DNA of 64,000 nt from an uncultured delta proteobacterium. Lineage in GTDB: Bacteria > Desulfobacterota > Binatia > Binatales > Binataceae. Location of the stretch: positions 741,345 to 805,344 of the forward strand of contig CAWCDG010000004.1 of the NCBI GenBank assembly GCA_963794325.1, given 5' to 3'. Of this stretch, positions 10,368-63,441 are shown one piece after another. Made by a program: the position numbers and the translations under genes. Each line of letters opens with the position of its first letter. The stretch's first letter is position 1. The notes beneath the pieces are model-generated. The model was not told where the DNA came from, searched no databases, and was given only the letters and a program-made list of their open reading frames with translations.

Positions 10368-11342
10368 CTACGGCGTGAAAGAACCCCCGCCATCGCTGGC
10401 GTCGGTGCCGCTTTCAGTGATGCCGTTGCCGCCCAGAATGCTGGAATGACCCCCGCTCGCCTCATTGTTCTCGCCACCACTGACGCTCGATCGAAAGCCG
10501 CTCGCCTTGTTGGACTGGCCTCCGCTGACGCTCGATGTAGGGCCGCTCGCGGTGTTGAATGCGCCGCCGCTGACGTTTGATGAAGGACCACTAGAGATGT
10601 TGCCCGTGCCACCGCTGATGCTGGAGTCTCCATTAGTCGCTTGGTTGAATCCGCCGCCGCTGATGCTCGAATCATTGCCGCTCGCAGTGTTGCCAAAGCC
10701 GCCGACGACGTTTGCTCCTTCCGAGGCGCCCGGAGTTGACGAACATGACTTTAAAGGTATTAAAGCTCCGCCCGCAGTGTTGCACTCGCCTCCTGTGACG
10801 CCGGCGTAGTTTGCGAGAGTGGCGTTCGCAAAGCCGCTTACCATACCGCCGCTGGCGGTGAACTCATGCTGCGGGCCTACGATCAAGTTGTGCGAGCCGG
10901 TCCGGTTGACGTCTATCGTCAAAGGCTCGATCGAATCTTCATCGTAGCCGACCACCAAATTTCCCAATCCGGTTGCGTCCACTGTGGTGCCGGACCCACT
11001 CTCGATATGGACATTGGCGCCGCTGATGATGACGTTCGGTCCTGCAAGGCCATTCTCCGCACCCGCATCGACACTGACGTAGGGGCCAAGCGCCAGCGCA
11101 TGATTGTTCTGTACGGCAGTCAGCGCCGTCTGGAGGGTTGTGATGTTGGTATTAGCCGTACTCAATGCCGTCTGCAGGGTTGCGACCTGCCCCTGTAGCG
11201 TCGTGATCAGCGCCAACAGACAGTTGCCCTTCGTGCTTCCGGGCTTGCAGGTCTTTTTCGCGTCAACGTTCTGAGCAAACGCGGGCGACGACAGGACGAT
11301 CACGAGCATGGTCAGCGCCAATCGGGACGTCAAGGTCTTCAT
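10368..11342 (-). CDS. Secreted repeat protein, tandem paralog of 9350-10312
   Basis: It has the same architecture: MKTLTSRLALTMLVIVLSSPAFA/QN, CKPGSTKGNC and LITTLQGQVATLQTAL. The conserved core reads GPNVIISGANVHIESGSGTT...NRTGSHNLIVGPQHEFTASGG. C-terminal repeats include SSISGGGFNQAT, SSISGGTGNISS, SNVSGGAFNTAS, SSVSGGQSNKAS and SSVSGGENNEAS. Confidence 0.7.
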   Translation of the reverse strand: MKTLTSRLALTMLVIVLSSPAFAQNVDAKKTCKPGSTKGNCLLALITTLQGQVATLQTALSTANTNITTLQTALTAVQNNHALALGPYVSVDAGAENGLAGPNVIISGANVHIESGSGTTVDATGLGNLVVGYDEDSIEPLTIDVNRTGSHNLIVGPQHEFTASGGMVSGFANATLANYAGVTGGECNTAGGALIPLKSCSSTPGASEGANVVGGFGNTASGNDSSISGGGFNQATNGDSSISGGTGNISSGPSSNVSGGAFNTASGPTSSVSGGQSNKASGFRSSVSGGENNEASGGHSSILGGNGITESGTDASDGGGSFTP

Positions 11343-13959: not shown

Positions 13960-14922
13960 CTACTTCTTCATATCGGAAAGAAAATCCAGAATCGCCGCGT
14001 TCACCTCTCCCGGCTTTTCCTGCTGCGTCCAATGACCCGAACCCTTGACCAGCACGGTCTTGCGCAGATTCGGCACCCACGTCGTCATCCCCTCGGCCAT
14101 CTCGGGCCGCAGCACAACATCGCGCTCGGCGGTAATCATCAGCGCAGGTTGCTCAACGCGATCGACCTGCCCTTCGCTCTCCTCCCAGTTCCGATCGATG
14201 CATCGATACCAGTTCAGACCGCCGCGAAACCCGCTCTTCTTGAACGCGTTTACGAAGACTTCGAAATCCGCCTCGGTGAGAAACTTCCCGTGCGGGCGAT
14301 CCGAGAATCGATCGAGCAGTCCGCCGCCCGCAGGCCCGAACACGCCCGGCGCCGACTTCCGAATCTCGTCCGGATTCGCTTCCGGCGGATCCTGGTAGAA
14401 GCCGCGCAGCGAACGGGCAACGTCGCGTTCGAGTTCCGCCTCCGCTACGCCCGGCGTTTGAAAATAGAGAATGTAGTGAAAGCCACCCGCCGCCATCGCC
14501 CGCATCGCATCGGTCGGCTTCATCGGCGCGCGCGGTATGAACGGCGTGTTGATGCCAATGACGCGCTCGACGCGGTCACGCGCCATGAGCGCAGTGTTCC
14601 ACGCGACCATGCCGCCCCAATCGTGACCGACGATCACGCATCGCCCGATGTTCAGCGCGTCGAGCATGCCGACGATATCGCCAACCAGCTTGCGCTGCGT
14701 GTATGCCTCGATCGGCGCGGGCGCTTCGCTCTCGGCATAGCCGCGCTGGTCCGGTGCGATCGCGCGAAAGCCCGCCTCCGCCAGCGCCTTCATCTGATGC
14801 CGCCACGAATACCACATCTCGGGAAAGCCATGGCAAAACACCACCGGGAACCCGTCGCCGGTTTCCGCGACGTGCATCCTGATGCCGTTGGTCCGGACGA
14901 AGCTGTGCTTGATTTCACTCAT
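13960..14922 (-). CDS. Alpha/beta hydrolase, epoxide-hydrolase-like
   Basis: It reads MSEIKHSFVRTNGIRMHVAE, then the HGFPEMWYSWRHQ oxyanion motif and the nucleophile elbow VGHDWGG. I take ATG 14922. It is a paralog of 32215-33177. Confidence 0.8.
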   Translation of the reverse strand: MSEIKHSFVRTNGIRMHVAETGDGFPVVFCHGFPEMWYSWRHQMKALAEAGFRAIAPDQRGYAESEAPAPIEAYTQRKLVGDIVGMLDALNIGRCVIVGHDWGGMVAWNTALMARDRVERVIGINTPFIPRAPMKPTDAMRAMAAGGFHYILYFQTPGVAEAELERDVARSLRGFYQDPPEANPDEIRKSAPGVFGPAGGGLLDRFSDRPHGKFLTEADFEVFVNAFKKSGFRGGLNWYRCIDRNWEESEGQVDRVEQPALMITAERDVVLRPEMAEGMTTWVPNLRKTVLVKGSGHWTQQEKPGEVNAAILDFLSDMKK

Positions 14923-15484
14923 CGCGTGCACCTCGGAAAATATTGCGGCGAGCAACACCCGATGGGCCGTTCCGGCCGTCCGATATTGCGGGTGACCTCG
15001 ACGCGAAACTCTGGGCCAATCCCTGGAATTCCTCGCGAAGAACCTTGGCCGACTTGAACGCGCCAGCCAGATACGAGAGTTGGTCTTGAAGCTCGACCGC
15101 CGGTCCGAGTGCGTCGGCGAGTTCGCTCAAATGTTCGGCGAACGACGCGCAAAGCCGTTTGAGTGTCTGGTCGAGAGCCTCCAGCGGAGCAAACCGATTC
15201 GGGACCGGACGAAGGCGATCCTGGAAGTTGTGCATTGACTCGAGCACTCTGGCCAGGTCGCTGACCTGCGTCGCGAACTTGCGTAACTCGTCAAACACGT
15301 TTACCAGCTCGCCGAGCCGCTGAATCGTTTCGCGAAAAGACGCGATACGAGCGAGCTGCGCCTGCAAAGGCTCAACCTGGTCAAAAACTGCCGATACCGT
15401 CAGTCGGGCCTGAAACGCGTTGGAATCTTCGCGCTCGTTGGAAGGCAGCCCGTACAGGTCGGCTTTGATATCAAACAGTATCAT
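14915..15484 (-). CDS. Hypothetical helical-repeat protein, paralog A (no recognisable family)
   Basis: The 189-aa protein aligns with paralogs B and C (SAVFDQVEPLQAQLARIA...LESMHNFQDRL...LEALDQTLKRL...LGPAVELQDQLSYLAGAF...KVLREEFQGLAQSF). It has N- and C-terminal extensions. Its stop overlaps the hydrolase start by 8 nt (ATGAGTGA). Confidence 0.55.
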   Translation of the reverse strand: MILFDIKADLYGLPSNEREDSNAFQARLTVSAVFDQVEPLQAQLARIASFRETIQRLGELVNVFDELRKFATQVSDLARVLESMHNFQDRLRPVPNRFAPLEALDQTLKRLCASFAEHLSELADALGPAVELQDQLSYLAGAFKSAKVLREEFQGLAQSFASRSPAISDGRNGPSGVARRNIFRGARDE

Positions 15485-15566
15485 CGTGCTTTTCCTGGTG
15501 CTCTTCCCACAATCGCAGACTCGCGCGGCACTTCGCGCCAGGAAAGATGGGCGGACCGGCGTTCAC

Positions 15567-16028
15567 TTAATTGGGCAGGTCCGCCGGGTTTCGCTCGAAA
15601 GTTCGAGCCAGCGCAGAGAATTCCTGGCGAAGAGCCTTGGCCGGCTCAAATGCAGTACACAGGTGCGCGAGTCGATCCTGAAGAGCTGCGGCGGGCTCGA
15701 GAGCCGTGGCGAGTTGGCACAGACTTTCGCGGAACGACACGCAGAGCTGGCTGAGTTCCTGGTCGAGCGTTTCCAACGGTGAGAATTGCTTCAACACCTG
15801 CTGAAGTTGGTGCTGGAAGTTGTGCATCGGCTCGAGCACTTTAGCCAGGTCCCTGATCTGTCCCTCGAACTCGCGCAGAGGTTCGAACACGCTTGCAAGC
15901 TCAGAGAGCTGCTGTATCGGTTCGAGGATAACCGCGATCTGCGCCAACTGCTCCTGGAGCGGTCTGATCTGATCGAAGACCGCCGATACCGCCAGACCGG
16001 GCTCAAATGAAGTTCGCTGAGTTGCCAT
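15567..16028 (-). CDS. Hypothetical helical-repeat protein, paralog B
   Basis: The 153-aa protein shows 98 identical residues over the first 146 positions, gap-free, against paralog C in my hand alignment. It is made of proline-punctuated repeats of about 17 residues (EPMHNFQHQLQQVLKQF / SPLETLDQELSQLCVSF / EPAAALQDRLAHLCTAF / EPAKALRQEFSALARTF). Confidence 0.6.
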   Translation of the reverse strand: MATQRTSFEPGLAVSAVFDQIRPLQEQLAQIAVILEPIQQLSELASVFEPLREFEGQIRDLAKVLEPMHNFQHQLQQVLKQFSPLETLDQELSQLCVSFRESLCQLATALEPAAALQDRLAHLCTAFEPAKALRQEFSALARTFERNPADLPN

Positions 16029-16117
16029 CTTAATTCATCCCTAGGCTTTTTAGCTTTTTAGTGGCGAATCGTTGCAGAAGTATAAAAATGCGTCAGATAG
16101 ACGACTTTAGCTCTTGT

Positions 16118-16144
16118 TTGACGATCTTGGCAGCATCGTACAAT
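16118..16144 (+). promoter_or_regulatory. Weak sigma70-type promoter candidate for paralog C (TTGACG-N15-TACAAT)
   Basis: It lies in the AT-rich 248-bp divergent spacer. The 15-nt spacer is short (16 nt if the -35 is read as TTTGAC). Confidence 0.25.
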
Positions 16145-16276
16145 CCATACATCTCTCGCAAGCCGCAGCATCGCGACAATCCACAGGGGCCCAGTTGCCA
16201 TTACAGTGGCCTGACGGCAAGGTACAAGCGACTCGACGGTCAATGAAAGTGGCTGTTGTTGGGAGGATAGACACAA

Positions 16277-16744
16277 ATGGCAGACAAGCAGATTTCGTTT
16301 CACCCCGCGCTCGCGGTAGAGGCGGTGTTTGAGCAGGTAAAGCCGCTTGAAGATCAGCTCGCTCAGATAGCGTCGATTCTGGGACCTATAGGGCAGCTTT
16401 CGGAGCTTGGGAGTGTGTTTGAACCGCTGCGCCTGTTTGGTACGCAAGTCAAGGAATTAGCCAAACTGCTCGAACCGATGCGCAGTTTCCAGGACCAGCT
16501 CCGACAGGTTCTGAATCAATTCGGCCCCCTGCAAGCTCTGGATCAGGAACTCGATCAACTTTCTGAAGGGTTCTGCCAAAGCCTAAGCCAGCTTGCCGCT
16601 GCGCTCGAACCGGCGGTGACGCTTCAGGACAGACTCGCGCATCTGGCTAACGCGTTTGAACCGGCGAAGACCCTTCGCGAGGACTTCTCGGCGCTGGCGC
16701 AGGGTTTCGAGCGAAGCTCACAAGGTTTATCGGAGCAAGCTTGA
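16277..16744 (+). CDS. Hypothetical helical-repeat protein, paralog C
   Basis: The 155-aa protein has GGAGGA 9 nt upstream of ATG. Repeats read KPLEDQLAQIASIL / GPIGQLSELGSVF / EPLRLFGTQVKELAKLL / EPMRSFQDQLRQVLNQF / GPLQALDQELDQLSEGF / EPAVTLQDRLAHLANAF / EPAKTLREDFSALAQGF. No signal peptide is visible. Confidence 0.6.
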   Translation: MADKQISFHPALAVEAVFEQVKPLEDQLAQIASILGPIGQLSELGSVFEPLRLFGTQVKELAKLLEPMRSFQDQLRQVLNQFGPLQALDQELDQLSEGFCQSLSQLAAALEPAVTLQDRLAHLANAFEPAKTLREDFSALAQGFERSSQGLSEQA

Positions 16745-16787
16745 AATATAGAGAAGACTCGCAACCGCGGGATCAGAGCGCAGGGTA

Positions 16788-18305
16788 ATGGACAAACCGA
16801 AAGTGACCGAAGCGGCTGTCGGCGCCGAACAAGTGGTGCGCGATCTGGTCGACGCCTTGAAGTCGCTCCAAAAAAAACAGGCGCCGCTCAGTTCGTCGCC
16901 GCCTGGCGAACAAGAGCAACAAAAACAAAAACCGACCGAATCGCGCGACGGCCGTTCGAAGGCAACCACGCTTCTTGAGACTTTGCCGGGCGTTCCAGAT
17001 GTCGACGAGCCAGAGCCAGAACAAATCCCGGAACTCGAAACCGCCGAGAATTCACAGACCCCAGGCTTCGAAGTTCAATCTGGCGATTACGGAATCGTTC
17101 AAGGATTCTGCCGCAACCACGGAGTCGTCGAGCGCTTCCGGGTGACTCCTGAGGAACTAAAGGCGTTGTCCAACGCATCTCTGCTCGGACCTCTGATTTG
17201 CGAGCAAGATGTTAAGTTCATGCTGCGCCAAATTCGCGAGGCGAGTAAGCCCGCGGAACCGCAGGCCACCATTGCGCCCGAGCAAATCAGGGTCCCATTT
17301 CTCCTGGACGCCGCCTCCTCGCTCGAGCGCGTGGAGAACGGCTCGTCTGGCCCCTCGGGAAACAACAGCGAGGAACGCGAAGTAAACGATCGCGCGACCG
17401 AGGAGGAAAAAGACAAGAGCCAGGGGTTGGGCGCCGCGCTCAACGGTCTGGCCAGCCAGGTCGCCTCTCAACCCGCGCCGCGTAACAGGCGCAAGCGTCG
17501 AACCAGAACCGGCACAAAGGTGGCCATCGGCATTTCTGTCGCCAGTCTGTTGCTGTGGGTCCTGACTCTTGGGGTCTTGTATAAGTTAGTCGACGCTTAT
17601 CGAAGGCACGTAACCACTATAGCTGCGCTCAACACGATCATTGGCAAGCAGCGCGAAATTAGCCAACAAGCCATTTCGGAAGTGCAGGCGCAGGCGGCCG
17701 CCGCCAAACAAGCCTCCCAAGCGGCCGAATCCCAGGCGGATAGCATCAAAACCCAAGCGGACGGCAGCAAGACCGATGCGGACGCTGCCAAGACTCAGGC
17801 AGACTCTGCTGCGCTCTCCGCGCGCAGTGCACGCGATATGGTGGTGATCGCCGAAGCTGCCCACGTCAATGTGGATGCAATCTACTGTTCTCCTCGCGCT
17901 GCATTGAGTCTCGATACGGTATTTACATTGCGTTACCGCAATTCGGGTAGAACTCGTGCCGACAACCTTGAGTCGTCTTTCTCCGCCGGAATTCCCGACG
18001 CTACGCCGACCGAAGAATCAACAGATCCGGCCAGCAAAGTCACTGCTGCTTCGGTAGGCGCAGGTGCGAGCATACCAGGTGGAACCACAGGAACAGTCAG
18101 AGACCTGCTCTCGAAGAGTTTAGGCAGTGTTCCACCCGAACAAACGTTTCAGAAGATTGTTGCGGGGCAGCTCAAGTTTGGGATTTGGGGAACTTCTACG
18201 TACACTGACGTTCTGAAGGAGAAACATCAAGAGAAATTCGAGTACGTTTGGGATCGCAACTTTCCGAACGCTTGCCTGTTCACCGTTGCGCACACCGATG
18301 AATAG
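16788..18305 (+). CDS. Hypothetical bitopic membrane protein with an Ala/Gln-rich coiled coil and a C-terminal beta-rich domain
   Basis: The 505-aa gene starts 43 nt downstream of paralog C. It has an acidic/Pro-rich N-terminus and one TM helix (VAIGISVASLLLWVLTLGVLY) preceded by NRRKRRTRTGTK, implying N-in topology. A low-complexity coiled coil follows (QAQAAAAKQASQAAESQADSIKTQADGSKTDADAAKTQADSAALSA). GC is visibly lower than in the flanks. Confidence 0.55.
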   Translation: MDKPKVTEAAVGAEQVVRDLVDALKSLQKKQAPLSSSPPGEQEQQKQKPTESRDGRSKATTLLETLPGVPDVDEPEPEQIPELETAENSQTPGFEVQSGDYGIVQGFCRNHGVVERFRVTPEELKALSNASLLGPLICEQDVKFMLRQIREASKPAEPQATIAPEQIRVPFLLDAASSLERVENGSSGPSGNNSEEREVNDRATEEEKDKSQGLGAALNGLASQVASQPAPRNRRKRRTRTGTKVAIGISVASLLLWVLTLGVLYKLVDAYRRHVTTIAALNTIIGKQREISQQAISEVQAQAAAAKQASQAAESQADSIKTQADGSKTDADAAKTQADSAALSARSARDMVVIAEAAHVNVDAIYCSPRAALSLDTVFTLRYRNSGRTRADNLESSFSAGIPDATPTEESTDPASKVTAASVGAGASIPGGTTGTVRDLLSKSLGSVPPEQTFQKIVAGQLKFGIWGTSTYTDVLKEKHQEKFEYVWDRNFPNACLFTVAHTDE

Positions 18306-18442
18306 AGTCCCGCGATTGCGTCTACAGGGTTTGGCGAGGCGAACGCGCGTTTCGACAGGCACGTGACGTAGCGCTTGGCGAGTCCCTCTCGGCGAGCGAT
18401 CTCGTATCGAAGCCAGCGCGCGTGGGCGCTAATAAACCGCAA

Positions 18443-18472: not shown

Positions 18473-18540
18473 CTCGGTTGCAACCGACTGAACGCTAGTT
18501 TGATAGTAGCAACAGTCCAAGCAATCTGGAGGAACACCCG

Positions 18541-19188
18541 ATGAGCCGCGATTTTGAATTCAAACAACTGCTGCGCGCCTACCGCAGCGGAATTATTTCT
18601 CAGGCAACGTTCGAGTCCGAGATGGCATGGCTCGGAGCCGGAGCGCCGGCCACCAACGGCAACGGCGGCGGCGGTTTCAAGGCCTTCGGCCGCACTTACA
18701 AATCCGAACACGCCGCGGTCGTCAGTTTTCTCGACAAAGTTCGCGCCGGCGAGGCCAACGGCGGGGAAGCATTCGCGGCATGGGCGGAGGTCTGCACGAC
18801 AGATTGCATCCGCACGGGCATCCGCATGGTTGCCGAGCGCGAGGCCTATCATTCGCGGGTATTCGCGCAGCGCCTGGCGGAACTCGGCGGTGAGACTCGC
18901 GCGCCCATCACCGAGGACGGACGCAAGTACACTGCTTATCTTGGCGACCCGTCGATTCCCGACAACGAGAAACTGCTCAGCTTCACCAAGCGCGTCGGCA
19001 AGCCCGAGGACGCCATCAAACCCATCTGCGAATTCGCCGAACTGCTGAAAGAAGATCTCTCGACCAGGGAAGCGCTGCGGCTGTTCGCCGAAGACGAACT
19101 GTCGACCGCGAAATGGCTGTGGGATTCGTGCGCCGCACTCAACGCGCCCAAGCAGCAGGCGTCGGCGTCGGACTCAGCATCGATGTAG
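18541..19188 (+). CDS. Hypothetical protein with an N-terminal SHOCT-like motif and a possible degenerate ferritin-like helical bundle
   Basis: FKQLLRAYRSGIISQATFESEMAWLG resembles the SHOCT pattern. A Gly-rich linker follows. Helices carry E...ExxH (AEREAYHSRVF) and FAEDELSTAKW. The assignment is tentative. Confidence 0.4.
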   Translation: MSRDFEFKQLLRAYRSGIISQATFESEMAWLGAGAPATNGNGGGGFKAFGRTYKSEHAAVVSFLDKVRAGEANGGEAFAAWAEVCTTDCIRTGIRMVAEREAYHSRVFAQRLAELGGETRAPITEDGRKYTAYLGDPSIPDNEKLLSFTKRVGKPEDAIKPICEFAELLKEDLSTREALRLFAEDELSTAKWLWDSCAALNAPKQQASASDSASM

Positions 19189-19297: not shown

Positions 19298-20140
19298 TCA
19301 ATGCGTGGCCGGCGACGGCGCGCTCGCGGGCGCTGCTTCGGGCGGCGACATCTTCATCGCACCCGGCGACATCTTCATCGCACCCGGCGACATCTTCATT
19401 GAGCCCGGTCCCGGCAAATCCCTCTTGGTGAAATCCGCGGGAACCGTGAAATCGGCGTCCGCCAGTTTCTTCGCTTCGATTTTCTCGACCACCGTGGTGG
19501 TCATGACCGGCGGGCGTTTCGCCATCATCTCATTGATTTTCGCCGCCTGGTCCGGCGACATCCCCGGGATAGTCACATTCCCCATCTTCATAGACGAGTC
19601 CAGCGCGAGTGGTACTCCGCCCGGTACCTCTCCGGTGGCCCCAGCGGTGCCCGCGCTCTTGAGCTTCTCCGCCATATTCTTTTCGAACGCCGCAAACTCC
19701 GCCGCACCGGGTGCCGTGGTCGAGAAACATTCCTTGACCGTGTAGTCACCCGCCATCATGTGCCCGCCGCCGGTGTAGTCGGCGCACTTGAAGCCGGCGA
19801 TCTCGCGCGAACTGCCCGCCTTCTTGAAGTTCATCGCCGCGTTCGTGCTCGCCGCCATCATCGTGGCCATCTGCCCCTGCGGCGGAAACGCAATCTCGAA
19901 GTAGGTCTTCGCCTTCGGATCGAGCACGTACATTTTCCCGGCGTCCAGATCGGTTATGATCGTGTGACGCTCGGTCACCATCTTCTGCTTGTTGCCCTGC
20001 ACCGAAATCGTTTGTTCGGAGTCGCGAGTGTTCGTTCCACTGGTCACGTGCTGCTTTTGCTGTATGACGACCCCGGCGGCCGCGGGAATCGCGGCCATTG
20101 CGAGCGTCATCCCCGCAACCAGGGCGGTTAATTTCCTCAT
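19298..20140 (-). CDS. Secreted protein (DUF4412-like) with a C-terminal Met-rich triple repeat
   Basis: The signal peptide is MRKLTALVAGMTLAMAAIPAAAG. The segment GKMYVLDPKAKTYFEI is typical of DUF4412-like proteins as I recall them. The C-terminus reads GSMKMSPGAMKMSPGAMKMSPPE. Confidence 0.55.
   Translation of the reverse strand: MRKLTALVAGMTLAMAAIPAAAGVVIQQKQHVTSGTNTRDSEQTISVQGNKQKMVTERHTIITDLDAGKMYVLDPKAKTYFEIAFPPQGQMATMMAASTNAAMNFKKAGSSREIAGFKCADYTGGGHMMAGDYTVKECFSTTAPGAAEFAAFEKNMAEKLKSAGTAGATGEVPGGVPLALDSSMKMGNVTIPGMSPDQAAKINEMMAKRPPVMTTTVVEKIEAKKLADADFTVPADFTKRDLPGPGSMKMSPGAMKMSPGAMKMSPPEAAPASAPSPATH
19344..19406. repeat. 3 x 21-bp tandem repeat encoding (A/S)MKMSPG
   Basis: The unit ggcgacatcttcatcgcaccc occurs twice and is followed by ggcgacatcttcattgagccc. 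Confidence 0.9.
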
Positions 20141-63345: not shown

Positions 63346-63441
63346 TGGCGGAGGGGGGAGGGAGTCGAACCCTCCGGCAACAATATTAGCCGCCAAGCCG
63401 GTTTTGAAGACCGGTGGGGCCACCGGGCCCCTTCCTCCTCC
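63346..63441 (-). tRNA. selC: tRNA-Sec (anticodon UCA)
   Basis: The 96-nt RNA reads GGAGGAGG-AA-GGGGCC-CGGU-GGCCCC-A-CCGGU-CUUCAAA-ACCGG-(23-nt variable arm)-GAGGG-UUCGACU-CCCUC-CCCCCUCC-G-CCA. It has an 8-bp acceptor stem (one A-C mismatch), a 6-bp D stem with a 4-nt loop, a 5-bp T stem and a long variable arm. This is the bacterial tRNA-Sec 8/5 architecture. Confidence 0.85.

Follow-up and report, generated by a model that had tools for sequence, protein, structure and literature searches.

Background

How did a block of four genes that resemble nothing described come to lie in the chromosome of an uncultured bacterium, and what might its products build? The question is raised by a stretch of 64,000 nucleotides (nt), hereafter the window, from an uncultured delta proteobacterium of the family Binataceae (contig CAWCDG010000004.1, positions 741,345 to 805,344 of the forward strand; assembly GCA_963794325.1). 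An earlier note, made from the sequence of the window and a list of its open reading frames (ORFs), had drawn attention to three related helical-repeat proteins, here called A, B and C, beside a membrane protein of 505 amino acids (aa), here called D, and had proposed that the four make up one undescribed and probably acquired module. Here we present evidence that these genes constitute a cassette which is a horizontally exchanged accessory unit; this is the best-supported part of the analysis. On balance, and with modest confidence, we also lean towards the view that the mobile cassette encodes a cytoplasmic hetero-oligomeric helical bundle docked on the membrane-spanning stalk protein D.

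Four genes form a conserved module

Gene A (14915..15484, minus strand, 189 aa), which is matched by the A1 profile at E 2e-84, encodes an A-class helical-repeat protein, and gene B (15567..16028, minus strand, 153 aa) a B-class protein consisting of the bare FEP-repeat domain. Gene C (16277..16744, plus strand, 155 aa), of the C class, is followed after a gap of 43 nt by the ORF of protein D (16788..18305, plus strand, 505 aa), and B and C are divergently transcribed from an AT-rich spacer of 248 bp (16029..16276) with a guanine-plus-cytosine (GC) content of 0.48. The ORF list and the alignments bear out the coordinates, strands, divergent arrangement and paralogy that the earlier note had given. 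An ungapped alignment of B with C shows 65.6% identity over 151 aa (E 9e-68), and A, which carries terminal extensions, is 56% identical to B and 54% to C, in keeping with the note's picture of a close, ungapped pair and a more diverged, extended third member.

All-against-all comparison and profile scans divide the helical proteins into three orthologous classes, A, B and C, across Binataceae. Identities between orthologues (A 66%, B 85% and C 80% relative to locus L001) are above the 54-66% found within a genome, so the triplication is older than the split of these lineages. The note's "triplicated family" was thus correct as to paralogy, and the local duplication that the phrase suggests gives way to three ancient classes. 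The orthologues of A (168 aa and 66% identical in L001, 78% in L038, 83% in L070) share a conserved N-terminal extension, MILFDIKADLYG, which is the signature of the class, and the C-terminal tail of A is lineage-specific and overlaps the start of the neighbouring hydrolase gene. For A, the ratio of non-synonymous to synonymous substitution rates (dN/dS) against orthologues is 0.37-0.51. B is 84-90% identical to its orthologues (85% to L001_153), with dN/dS of 0.19-0.49 for the window copy and 0.08 in the pair L001/L002, and C is 77-94% identical to its own (80% to L001_155), with dN/dS of 0.17-0.30. All four cassette genes are under purifying selection (dN/dS 0.17-0.54 against orthologues), and values for B and C fall to 0.08-0.09 in the L001/L002 pair.

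In eight of eight long contigs (the window, L001, L002, L003, L038, L070, L072 and L081), D is accompanied by the helical genes. This pairing, which the earlier note had wanted followed across genomes, is kept down to about 50% identity in D and amid unrelated flanks, and across genomes the cassette comprises four to six genes. Conservation extends to the divergent control region between B and C (16029..16276; alignment A8): sequence blocks of the form AGTATAAAAAT.CGTCA are retained in relatives whose D is only about 50% identical, as is a conserved stretch of about 110 nt upstream of the Shine-Dalgarno sequence of C that includes AGTTGC[CT]ATT. The spacer of the window is shorter than those of its relatives by about 70 nt, and a simple consensus scan of it found no sigma-70 site. 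A structured RNA leader upstream of C was considered and rejected (z-scores of -1.7 to +1.5, no Rfam family).

Searches against known families were consistently negative. At curated cut-offs neither Pfam nor NCBIfam matched A to D, the only signal being coiled-coil-type noise, and searches of Protein Data Bank (PDB) sequences with four profiles and protein A returned designed coiled coils and noise only. PADLOC-DB v2 gave nothing for D, for the paralogs of its N-domain or for the distant D relative P0125, and for A to C matched only the C-terminal tail of ZorA (12-19 bits over about 40 residues, best E 1e-4); PHROGs gave weak coiled-coil matches only (E >= 1e-3). The N-domain paralogs, the members of the parent helical family and the distant relatives of D, all described below, likewise reached no cut-off in these profile libraries (Pfam, NCBIfam, PADLOC, PHROGs). 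No relatives were found in IMG/VR viral contigs or PLSDB plasmids, and the literature on Binatota offered metabolic surveys of metagenome-assembled genomes (MAGs) and nothing on the cassette proteins. The note's verdict that none of the four is recognisable thus withstands profile and structure searches, in which PDB and BFVD yielded only weak generic similarity. Judged from sequence, the helical FEP domain, the presumed docking N-domain of D and the transmembrane/coiled-coil/sandwich scaffold are outside every described family in the libraries searched. Together with the co-occurrence in all eight contigs, this supports the idea that the four genes are one undescribed module.

The opposite supposition would be that these are fast-evolving orphan genes that hitch-hike without a joint function, the helical proteins being generic coiled-coil filler. 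It would account for the lack of family assignments, for the high dN/dS of A and D and for parts that seem dispensable, such as a stand-alone paralog of the N-domain that has been lost in the window. Synteny largely refutes it, since gene order and class identity are kept to about 50% identity of D in four chromosomal contexts; dN/dS is below 1 in all four genes, the control region between B and C is conserved, and the helical proteins show whole-domain collinear homology to a family of 193 representatives. We therefore regard the absence of a joint function as highly improbable.

The cassette has been exchanged between genomes

Metagenome contigs were searched for orf215, the gene on the right flank of the cassette, and yielded 80 loci, of which 56 were informative. 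In 39 of these 56 the site is empty, the alpha/beta-hydrolase gene that borders the cassette on the left in the window directly adjoining orf215, and in another 11 neither hydrolase nor cassette is present. The cassette occupies the remaining six, as a full A-B-C-D set without the hydrolase in three and on contigs too short beyond D-orf215 in the other three; hydrolase and cassette stand together in the window only. Alignment of the window with the empty sites (alignment A7) places the inserted cassette at approximately 14940..18400, boundaries that were judged by eye with a precision of a few tens of nt. Homology to the empty sites stops just past the ATG region of the hydrolase (about 14940) and resumes at about 18400, some 130 nt upstream of the orf215 ATG, so that a conserved promoter-like TTGACA(18443)...TATGCT(18472) ahead of orf215 lies beyond the right junction.

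Including that of the window, the cassette occupies four different chromosomal sites in different lineages. The other three are an RND-efflux/catalase interval (L038), a position after an Exo_endo_phos gene (L001, L002) and one after an XRE regulator (L003). Furthermore, when the window is compared with L070, L072 and L081, synonymous divergence (dS) is 0.10-0.25 in the cassette and 0.50-0.60 in the flanks, a 2-6-fold deficit, and dN/dS is 0.25-0.53 in the cassette as against 0.05-0.19 in the flanks. The control pair L001/L002 has no such deficit (dS 0.21-0.30 in the cassette, 0.18-0.24 in the flanks), which shows that low dS is not intrinsic to the module genes, and that explanation was rejected. 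The cassette has been exchanged after the chromosomes diverged.

The earlier note had suggested acquisition from a visible dip in GC content. This dip is real, if small: the block, with a GC content of 0.569 as against 0.606 for the window, is the window's lowest point at this length, and only 0.5% of segments of that length across the 64 kb match or undercut it. At third codon positions the cassette genes have a GC content (GC3) of 0.60-0.68, compared with 0.71-0.80 in eight flanking genes, and in five genomes the cassette (0.564-0.572) is always below its flanks (0.574-0.628). The empty sites, the different insertion sites and the dS deficit make a far stronger case for acquisition than the composition on which the note relied.

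Near both borders lies a direct repeat of 20 nt, D6, with 18 of 20 positions identical (14950-14969 and 18529-18548). Copy 1 falls within the insert, close to its border, where it overlaps the GTG annotated for the hydrolase, and copy 2 coincides with the Shine-Dalgarno sequence and ATG of orf215. D6 was rejected as a target-site duplication, being away from the mapped junctions; it may be a recombination remnant from placement of the cassette, or chance.

The 17-residue repeat of the helical proteins

The earlier note had described A, B and C as seven or so repeats of 17 residues. The period stands: a lag of 17 gives the top BLOSUM autocorrelation in A (z 5.5), B (z 8.9), C (z 7.1) and a distant relative (z 10.3) by comparison with shuffled sequences. 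The count is better put at about eight proline-delimited units, the prolines of C being spaced at 13, 14, 13, 17, 17, 28 and 17 residues, which indicates shorter units of 13-14 residues in the N-terminal third.

The hydrophobicity spectrum of A to C has one sharp peak at 3.42 residues (17/5), which implies a single hydrophobic stripe that stays in phase across the prolines for about 140 residues. The stripe covers a narrow arc: of five 17-mers measured in C, four give 60-140 degrees. The proteins also carry an excess of acidic residues (net charge -3 for A, -8 for B and -10 for C), with Lys scarce. A narrow in-phase stripe combined with acidity fits packing in an overwound coiled coil or bundle better than a class-A lipid-coating helix. 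As the note had stated, A to C lack a signal peptide, the maximum 19-residue Kyte-Doolittle mean being <= 1.0. The AlphaFold model of C is all-helical (H10-47, H49-81, H83-126 and H128-154; predicted local distance difference test score, pLDDT, 77; predicted template-modelling score, pTM, 0.32), with most of the prolines inside the modelled helices, and a Foldseek search of the PDB with this model returned zero matches.

The origin of the three classes was traced by searching 1.84 billion representatives exhaustively with a profile, which retrieved 193 proteins at E <= 1e-3, 121 of them at E <= 1e-10. Members of this parent family are mostly 210-300 aa long and consist of an N-terminal motif, M.LKL[DE]ELR[KR]RLL, a disordered linker and, at the C-terminus, the helical domain of about 145 residues that they share with the cassette proteins. 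Alignments A1 and A3 match collinearly across the whole domain (hhalign probability 99.9%, E 1.6e-31, 149 columns). Within 8 kb of the 26 parent loci there is no D-like gene, and a parent-type member is missing from the window. Considered together, the additional motif and linker of the parent family, the collinear homology and the missing D-like neighbour indicate that the cassette proteins A, B and C are, as far as sequence comparison can tell, a specialised offshoot that has lost the N-terminal motif and the linker. The short N-terminal extension of A differs from the parental motif, and a kinship between the N-domain of D and the N-terminal region of the parent family was rejected (hhalign probability 0.1%).

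The parent genes (L008-L033; for example L014 8001-8735 and L027 8001-8753) stand in conserved synteny downstream of lipB-lipA, with lpdA. MlaC is present in 16 of the 26 loci, within about 2 kb in 14, with MlaE nearby, and the Mla genes are on the opposite strand; this adjacency possibly marks a link to lipid transport or is plain synteny, and is taken as a lead only. The 26 reference-genome loci known for the wider family of helical proteins all derive from MAGs of Candidatus Binataceae or from unclassified "delta proteobacterium" MAGs. Several genomes have a second parent-family copy, 10-20 kb away or in tandem (L026, L032).

The design of the repeats also bears on an analogy drawn by the earlier note, that with surface-coating proteins of the apolipoprotein, perilipin or phasin type, according to which A, B and C would coat a membrane, lipid body or inclusion and D would serve as the anchor. 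Apolipoprotein A-I is a design of proline-punctuated tandem amphipathic helices, and the cassette proteins resemble apolipoproteins A-I, A-IV and E (PF01442) in their proline-punctuated tandem helical repeats, in being all-helical and in having no recognised globular fold. Weak Pfam matches to Apolipoprotein and to spectrin-like models, the Mla genes near the parent loci, weak matches of B and C to the helical regions of MCE proteins (TIGR00996/PqiB, E 0.02-0.1) and a single JGI automatic name, "MlaD", point the same way. The likeness ends with the details. The period of the cassette proteins is 17, not 11 or 22; their stripe, at 3.42 residues, is narrow, in place of a wide class-A face; and they are bacterial, presumably cytoplasmic and paired with a membrane protein, and so acidic and Lys-poor as to be unfavourable for anionic lipid surfaces. 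The Apolipoprotein model PF01442 scored 12.5 bits for A and 15.7 bits for C against a cut-off of 90, no phasin family appeared at E <= 1 in Pfam or NCBIfam, and the cassette helical proteins, far under the cut-offs for MCE/MlaD/PqiB, have no MCE domain, transmembrane helix or signal peptide. No genes for polyhydroxyalkanoate (PHA) synthase or depolymerase, wax esters or lipid bodies were present among the listed neighbours in L001, L002, L003 and L038 or among eight scanned neighbours in the window, and the Mla genes, on the opposite strand, may be no more than synteny within one bacterial family. The analogy finds no support, and surface coating is in our view unlikely.

Another membrane-associated design is that of PspA and Vipp1, in which a small, all-helical cytoplasmic protein of the ESCRT-III superfamily is recruited by a bitopic partner, as PspA is by PspBC. 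The cassette proteins would then be highly diverged membrane-stress or membrane-remodelling proteins, an idea that draws on their all-helical nature, similar size and presumed association with the membrane through a partner. In PspA/Vipp1 the sequence MGLFDR forms the amphipathic helix alpha-0, and the N-terminus of A, MILFDIKADL, has a superficial resemblance to it. That lead was rejected after PDB searches with the A1 profile and protein A found no PspA, Vipp1 or ESCRT-III chain at E <= 10; in Pfam, PspA_IM30 was not reported at E <= 1. The repeat organisation is different, B and C have no such N-terminal helix, the cassette has three paralog classes, and a 17-residue proline-punctuated repeat is not known as a feature of the ESCRT-III superfamily. 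Set beside the ESCRT-III fold, a long alpha1-alpha2 hairpin plus alpha3-5, the C model shows four long helices with a pTM of 0.32, too low to define their packing. We consider this origin extremely improbable.

The remaining resemblances are of composition or pattern and not of homology. The best PDB sequence match of the parent-family profile, at E 1e-5, is sc-apCC-6 (PDB 8qae), a single-chain six-helix antiparallel barrel designed de novo with heptad-like patterns, and the spectrin-like model Spectrin_Anc-1 reaches 18-23 bits, under its 33-bit cut-off.

Domain organization of protein D

Hydropathy and AlphaFold modelling agree with the plan that the earlier note had proposed for the 505-aa protein: an acidic N-domain, one transmembrane helix, a coiled coil and a beta-rich C-terminal end. 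About 100 relatives of D were found, and those with names belong to Candidatus Binatus sp., of the phylum Candidatus Binatota.

Residues 1-156 (16788..17255) form the cytoplasmic N-domain, delimited with AlphaFold and by alignment with its paralogs (alignment A5). It is modelled as an amphipathic helix at 12-29, an acidic disordered linker, and a beta-hairpin with two helices at 100-153 (pLDDT 60-70), and has the core motif GFCR.HGVVERFRVTPEEL.ALS.ASLLG..C.QDV.FMLRQIREA. Profile searches with it gave no PDB sequence match at E <= 10 and no Pfam match. The first 155 or so residues of D are separable from the rest and have counterparts elsewhere that stand alone, in paralogs of 230-258 aa whose C-terminal tail is hydrophobic; alignment A5 joins the N-domain to three of these (L001_235, L003_230 and L003_258) and to a fusion protein, P0129. 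In L003 two genes take the place of D, one for the N-domain and one, of 323 aa, for the transmembrane, coiled-coil and beta-sandwich parts.

Genes for N-domains come immediately after a helical gene, at a distance of about 40-48 nt. This holds for C and D, for B and the 235-aa paralog in L001, and for the pairs 158/230 and 153/258 in L003, where the 230-aa N-domain gene overlaps the next, A-class gene of 162 aa by 1 nt. In P0129, from another metagenome, N-domain and helical domain are fused in one ORF of 401 aa. The stand-alone paralog found between B and A in L001 is absent from the window, where B and A are only 82 nt apart.

D-type N-domains carry a conserved C-x2-H...C pattern (C108, H111 and C138; GFCR.HG ... 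C.QD; window 17109-17201), which is absent from the 235/258-aa type of paralog. The pattern could be a metal or redox site.

Residues 157-240 (17256..17507) are an acidic, disordered linker (pLDDT < 50) that evolves fast (dN/dS 0.76-1.40) and ends, just before the transmembrane helix, in the basic cluster PRNRRKRRTRTGTK. Residues 241-357 (17508..17858), delimited by hydropathy and the model, comprise the transmembrane helix (245-263) and, continuous with it, an Ala/Gln/Asp-rich coiled-coil stalk; the two are modelled as a single helix spanning 243-355. Residues 1-230 have a net charge of -14, and the 15 residues before the transmembrane helix contain eight Lys or Arg, compared with three on its C-terminal side. 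By the positive-inside rule this asymmetry would place the N-terminus of D in the cytoplasm and its stalk and head in the periplasm.

The head, residues 358-505 (17859..18305; alignment A2), is modelled as an immunoglobulin-like (Ig-like) beta-sandwich at 360-490 with pLDDT of about 85. It has the invariant motifs RYRNSGRT.A and G..Y.D...E.H..F, and Cys 367 and Cys 496 are each conserved in more than 90% of sequences, a pair compatible with a disulfide. The transmembrane and stalk region is the most constrained part of D (dN/dS 0.14-0.38); the linkers are close to neutrality, and head (0.44-0.58) and N-domain lie in between. In the PDB, Foldseek matched D to generic helix-preceded Ig-like sandwiches only (C-terminal domains of Kir channels, ApaG and GAE; E >= 4e-3, template-modelling (TM) score <= 0.5). 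In BFVD the best match was a Rhizobium-phage "transmembrane protein" of similar architecture, a weak one (E 8e-4, TM scores 0.18/0.29).

An architecture in which a transmembrane anchor leads into a long, Ala-rich helical stalk, and which suggests a reach across the periplasm, is also seen in the periplasm-spanning proteins TolA, i-spanin (Rz) and Lpp/OprI, in which the transmembrane segment is N-terminal and, in TolA, the stalk ends in a C-terminal globular head. Unlike these, D has an additional cytoplasmic region of about 240 residues, and its head is an Ig-like sandwich. Alanine-zipper models matched D below their cut-offs (PF11839, E 0.73, 10.6 versus 23.1 bits; NF040598, E 0.25, 11.9 versus 43 bits), and the cassette has no TolQR, ExbBD or o-spanin partner genes.

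Distant relatives of the transmembrane/coiled-coil/sandwich unit (P0125 and P0272-P0284) are sparse, 21-34% identical, and encoded by stand-alone genes without helical partners. P0125 (L006 5699-6712), together with P0276 and P0283 (L034-L037), forms a separate uncharacterised family with a signal anchor, a Pro/Gln-rich region, the motif VKVLP..KT.EE and a second transmembrane segment; P0125 shares its contig with ArdC, RadC and a resolvase.

A proposed assembly and its possible role

The arrangement that we favour can be described in four steps. A, B and C would be cytoplasmic and would pack through their narrow 17/5 stripe into an elongated, hetero-oligomeric, coiled-coil-like bundle. This bundle would dock on the membrane-tethered N-domain of D. 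D would span the inner membrane, its stalk and beta-sandwich head projecting into the periplasm. The whole would act as an envelope-spanning tether or sensor, connecting the helical scaffold in the cytoplasm with a periplasmic head that evolves fast.

Several points weigh against this arrangement and against the history of exchange proposed for it. The formation of the bundle and its docking are based on gene order and on one fusion ORF, P0129, which lies on a single metagenomic contig of 2.4 kb, where a sequencing or assembly frameshift is possible. The pTM of the C model, 0.32, means that its packing is undefined. The placement of the C-terminus of D in the periplasm would follow solely from the positive-inside rule and the conserved Cys pair, and the loss of the stand-alone N-domain paralog from the window implies that this part is dispensable. 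As to mobility, L070, L072 and L081 are near-identical, so the dS deficit amounts to one independent lineage comparison, and there is no integrase or transposase among the neighbours, no nearby tRNA and no target-site duplication; we infer that transfer took place by homologous recombination through flanking sequence. So far Binataceae (phylum Candidatus Binatota) is the only family with the cassette, a taxonomic range that is a lower bound because the genome scan used one N-terminal peptide pattern, and a restriction that is tentative, most metagenomic matches carrying no taxonomy.

Patchy presence, mobility and elevated dN/dS together suggest an accessory role related to conflict or to niche, rather than housekeeping; such a role is plausible and still far from assured. 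In its most specific form the idea would be that of an undescribed anti-phage, exclusion or competition system in which the periplasmic head senses or blocks an invader and the helical proteins transmit or execute the response. In its favour, the cassette is small and self-contained, polymorphic for presence and absence, found at several sites, recently exchanged and lower in GC; A and D have dN/dS of 0.4-0.5 against 0.05-0.2 in the flanks, and the head of D evolves faster than its stalk. The most distant relative of D, P0125, lies in the company of ArdC, RadC and a resolvase, and the best BFVD match, poor as its TM scores are, is a phage protein. Against this stand the absence of any matching PADLOC model beyond the tail of ZorA (E 1e-4, 19 bits, 40 residues), the lack of a nuclease, ATPase, protease, NTPase or other effector-type domain, insertion sites that are not defence islands, the absence of relatives from IMG/VR viral contigs and PLSDB plasmids, and the conserved core-genome synteny of the parent family. 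We consider a conflict system of this kind rather doubtful.

The docked bundle on D could be carried one step further, to an undescribed envelope-spanning machine composed of a heteromeric cytoplasmic bundle of proline-punctuated 17-residue coiled-coil repeats with 3-4-3-4-3 spacing, a new docking domain, and a periplasmic stalk with an Ig-like head. The cassette would then spread among Binataceae by virtue of a conflict-related function, such as defence or the exclusion of phages or conjugation, or of a niche-specific function of the envelope. This we put forward as a tentative and somewhat speculative extension.

Neighbouring genes

To the right of the cassette, orf215 (18541-19188, plus strand, 215 aa) has no Pfam match and is 67-94% identical in at least 80 metagenome contigs, which marks it as an uncharacterised protein of wide occurrence. 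In the 56 informative loci it lies downstream of a CCG/4Fe-4S gene, and the hydrolase or the cassette may or may not intervene; a DUF4412 gene comes after it in most of the 80 loci. The alpha/beta-hydrolase gene to the left (13960-14958, minus strand) is variably present, with 39 loci having it and 11 lacking it (L040-L119), which makes the interval between the CCG/4Fe-4S gene and orf215 a small hot spot of gene gain and loss. The DUF4412 gene of the window (19298-20140, minus strand) contains three tandem copies of a 21-nt unit at 19343-19405, encoding a repeated heptapeptide, MKMSPGA, near the C-terminus.

Elsewhere in the window, 10368-11342 (minus strand) encodes a protein of 324 aa in which a signal peptide and a short coiled-coil-like TLQ repeat are accompanied by numerous "SGG.N.ASG" repeats rich in Gly, Ser and Asn; Pfam does not match it, and its appearance suggests a secreted fibre or an adhesin-like protein. 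The sole tRNA of the window is a tRNA-SeC (anticodon TCA, 63346-63441, minus strand), which implies that the organism uses selenocysteine.

Conclusions

Lineage-specific cassettes made up of hypothetical proteins are common, and the value of the present one lies in a well-delimited, testable target and not in a mechanism. Three protein families that lack described relatives are defined by the analysis: the helical FEP-repeat domain, the N-domain with its presumed docking function, and the transmembrane/coiled-coil/beta-sandwich scaffold. The very regular 17/5 hydrophobic periodicity of the helical domain is unusual and of interest for the structural biology of coiled coils. For an uncultured and globally abundant soil phylum known from MAG surveys, the findings document a conserved cassette that is exchanged among genomes and that, being mobile and patchily distributed, is a candidate for an accessory or conflict system not yet recognised.

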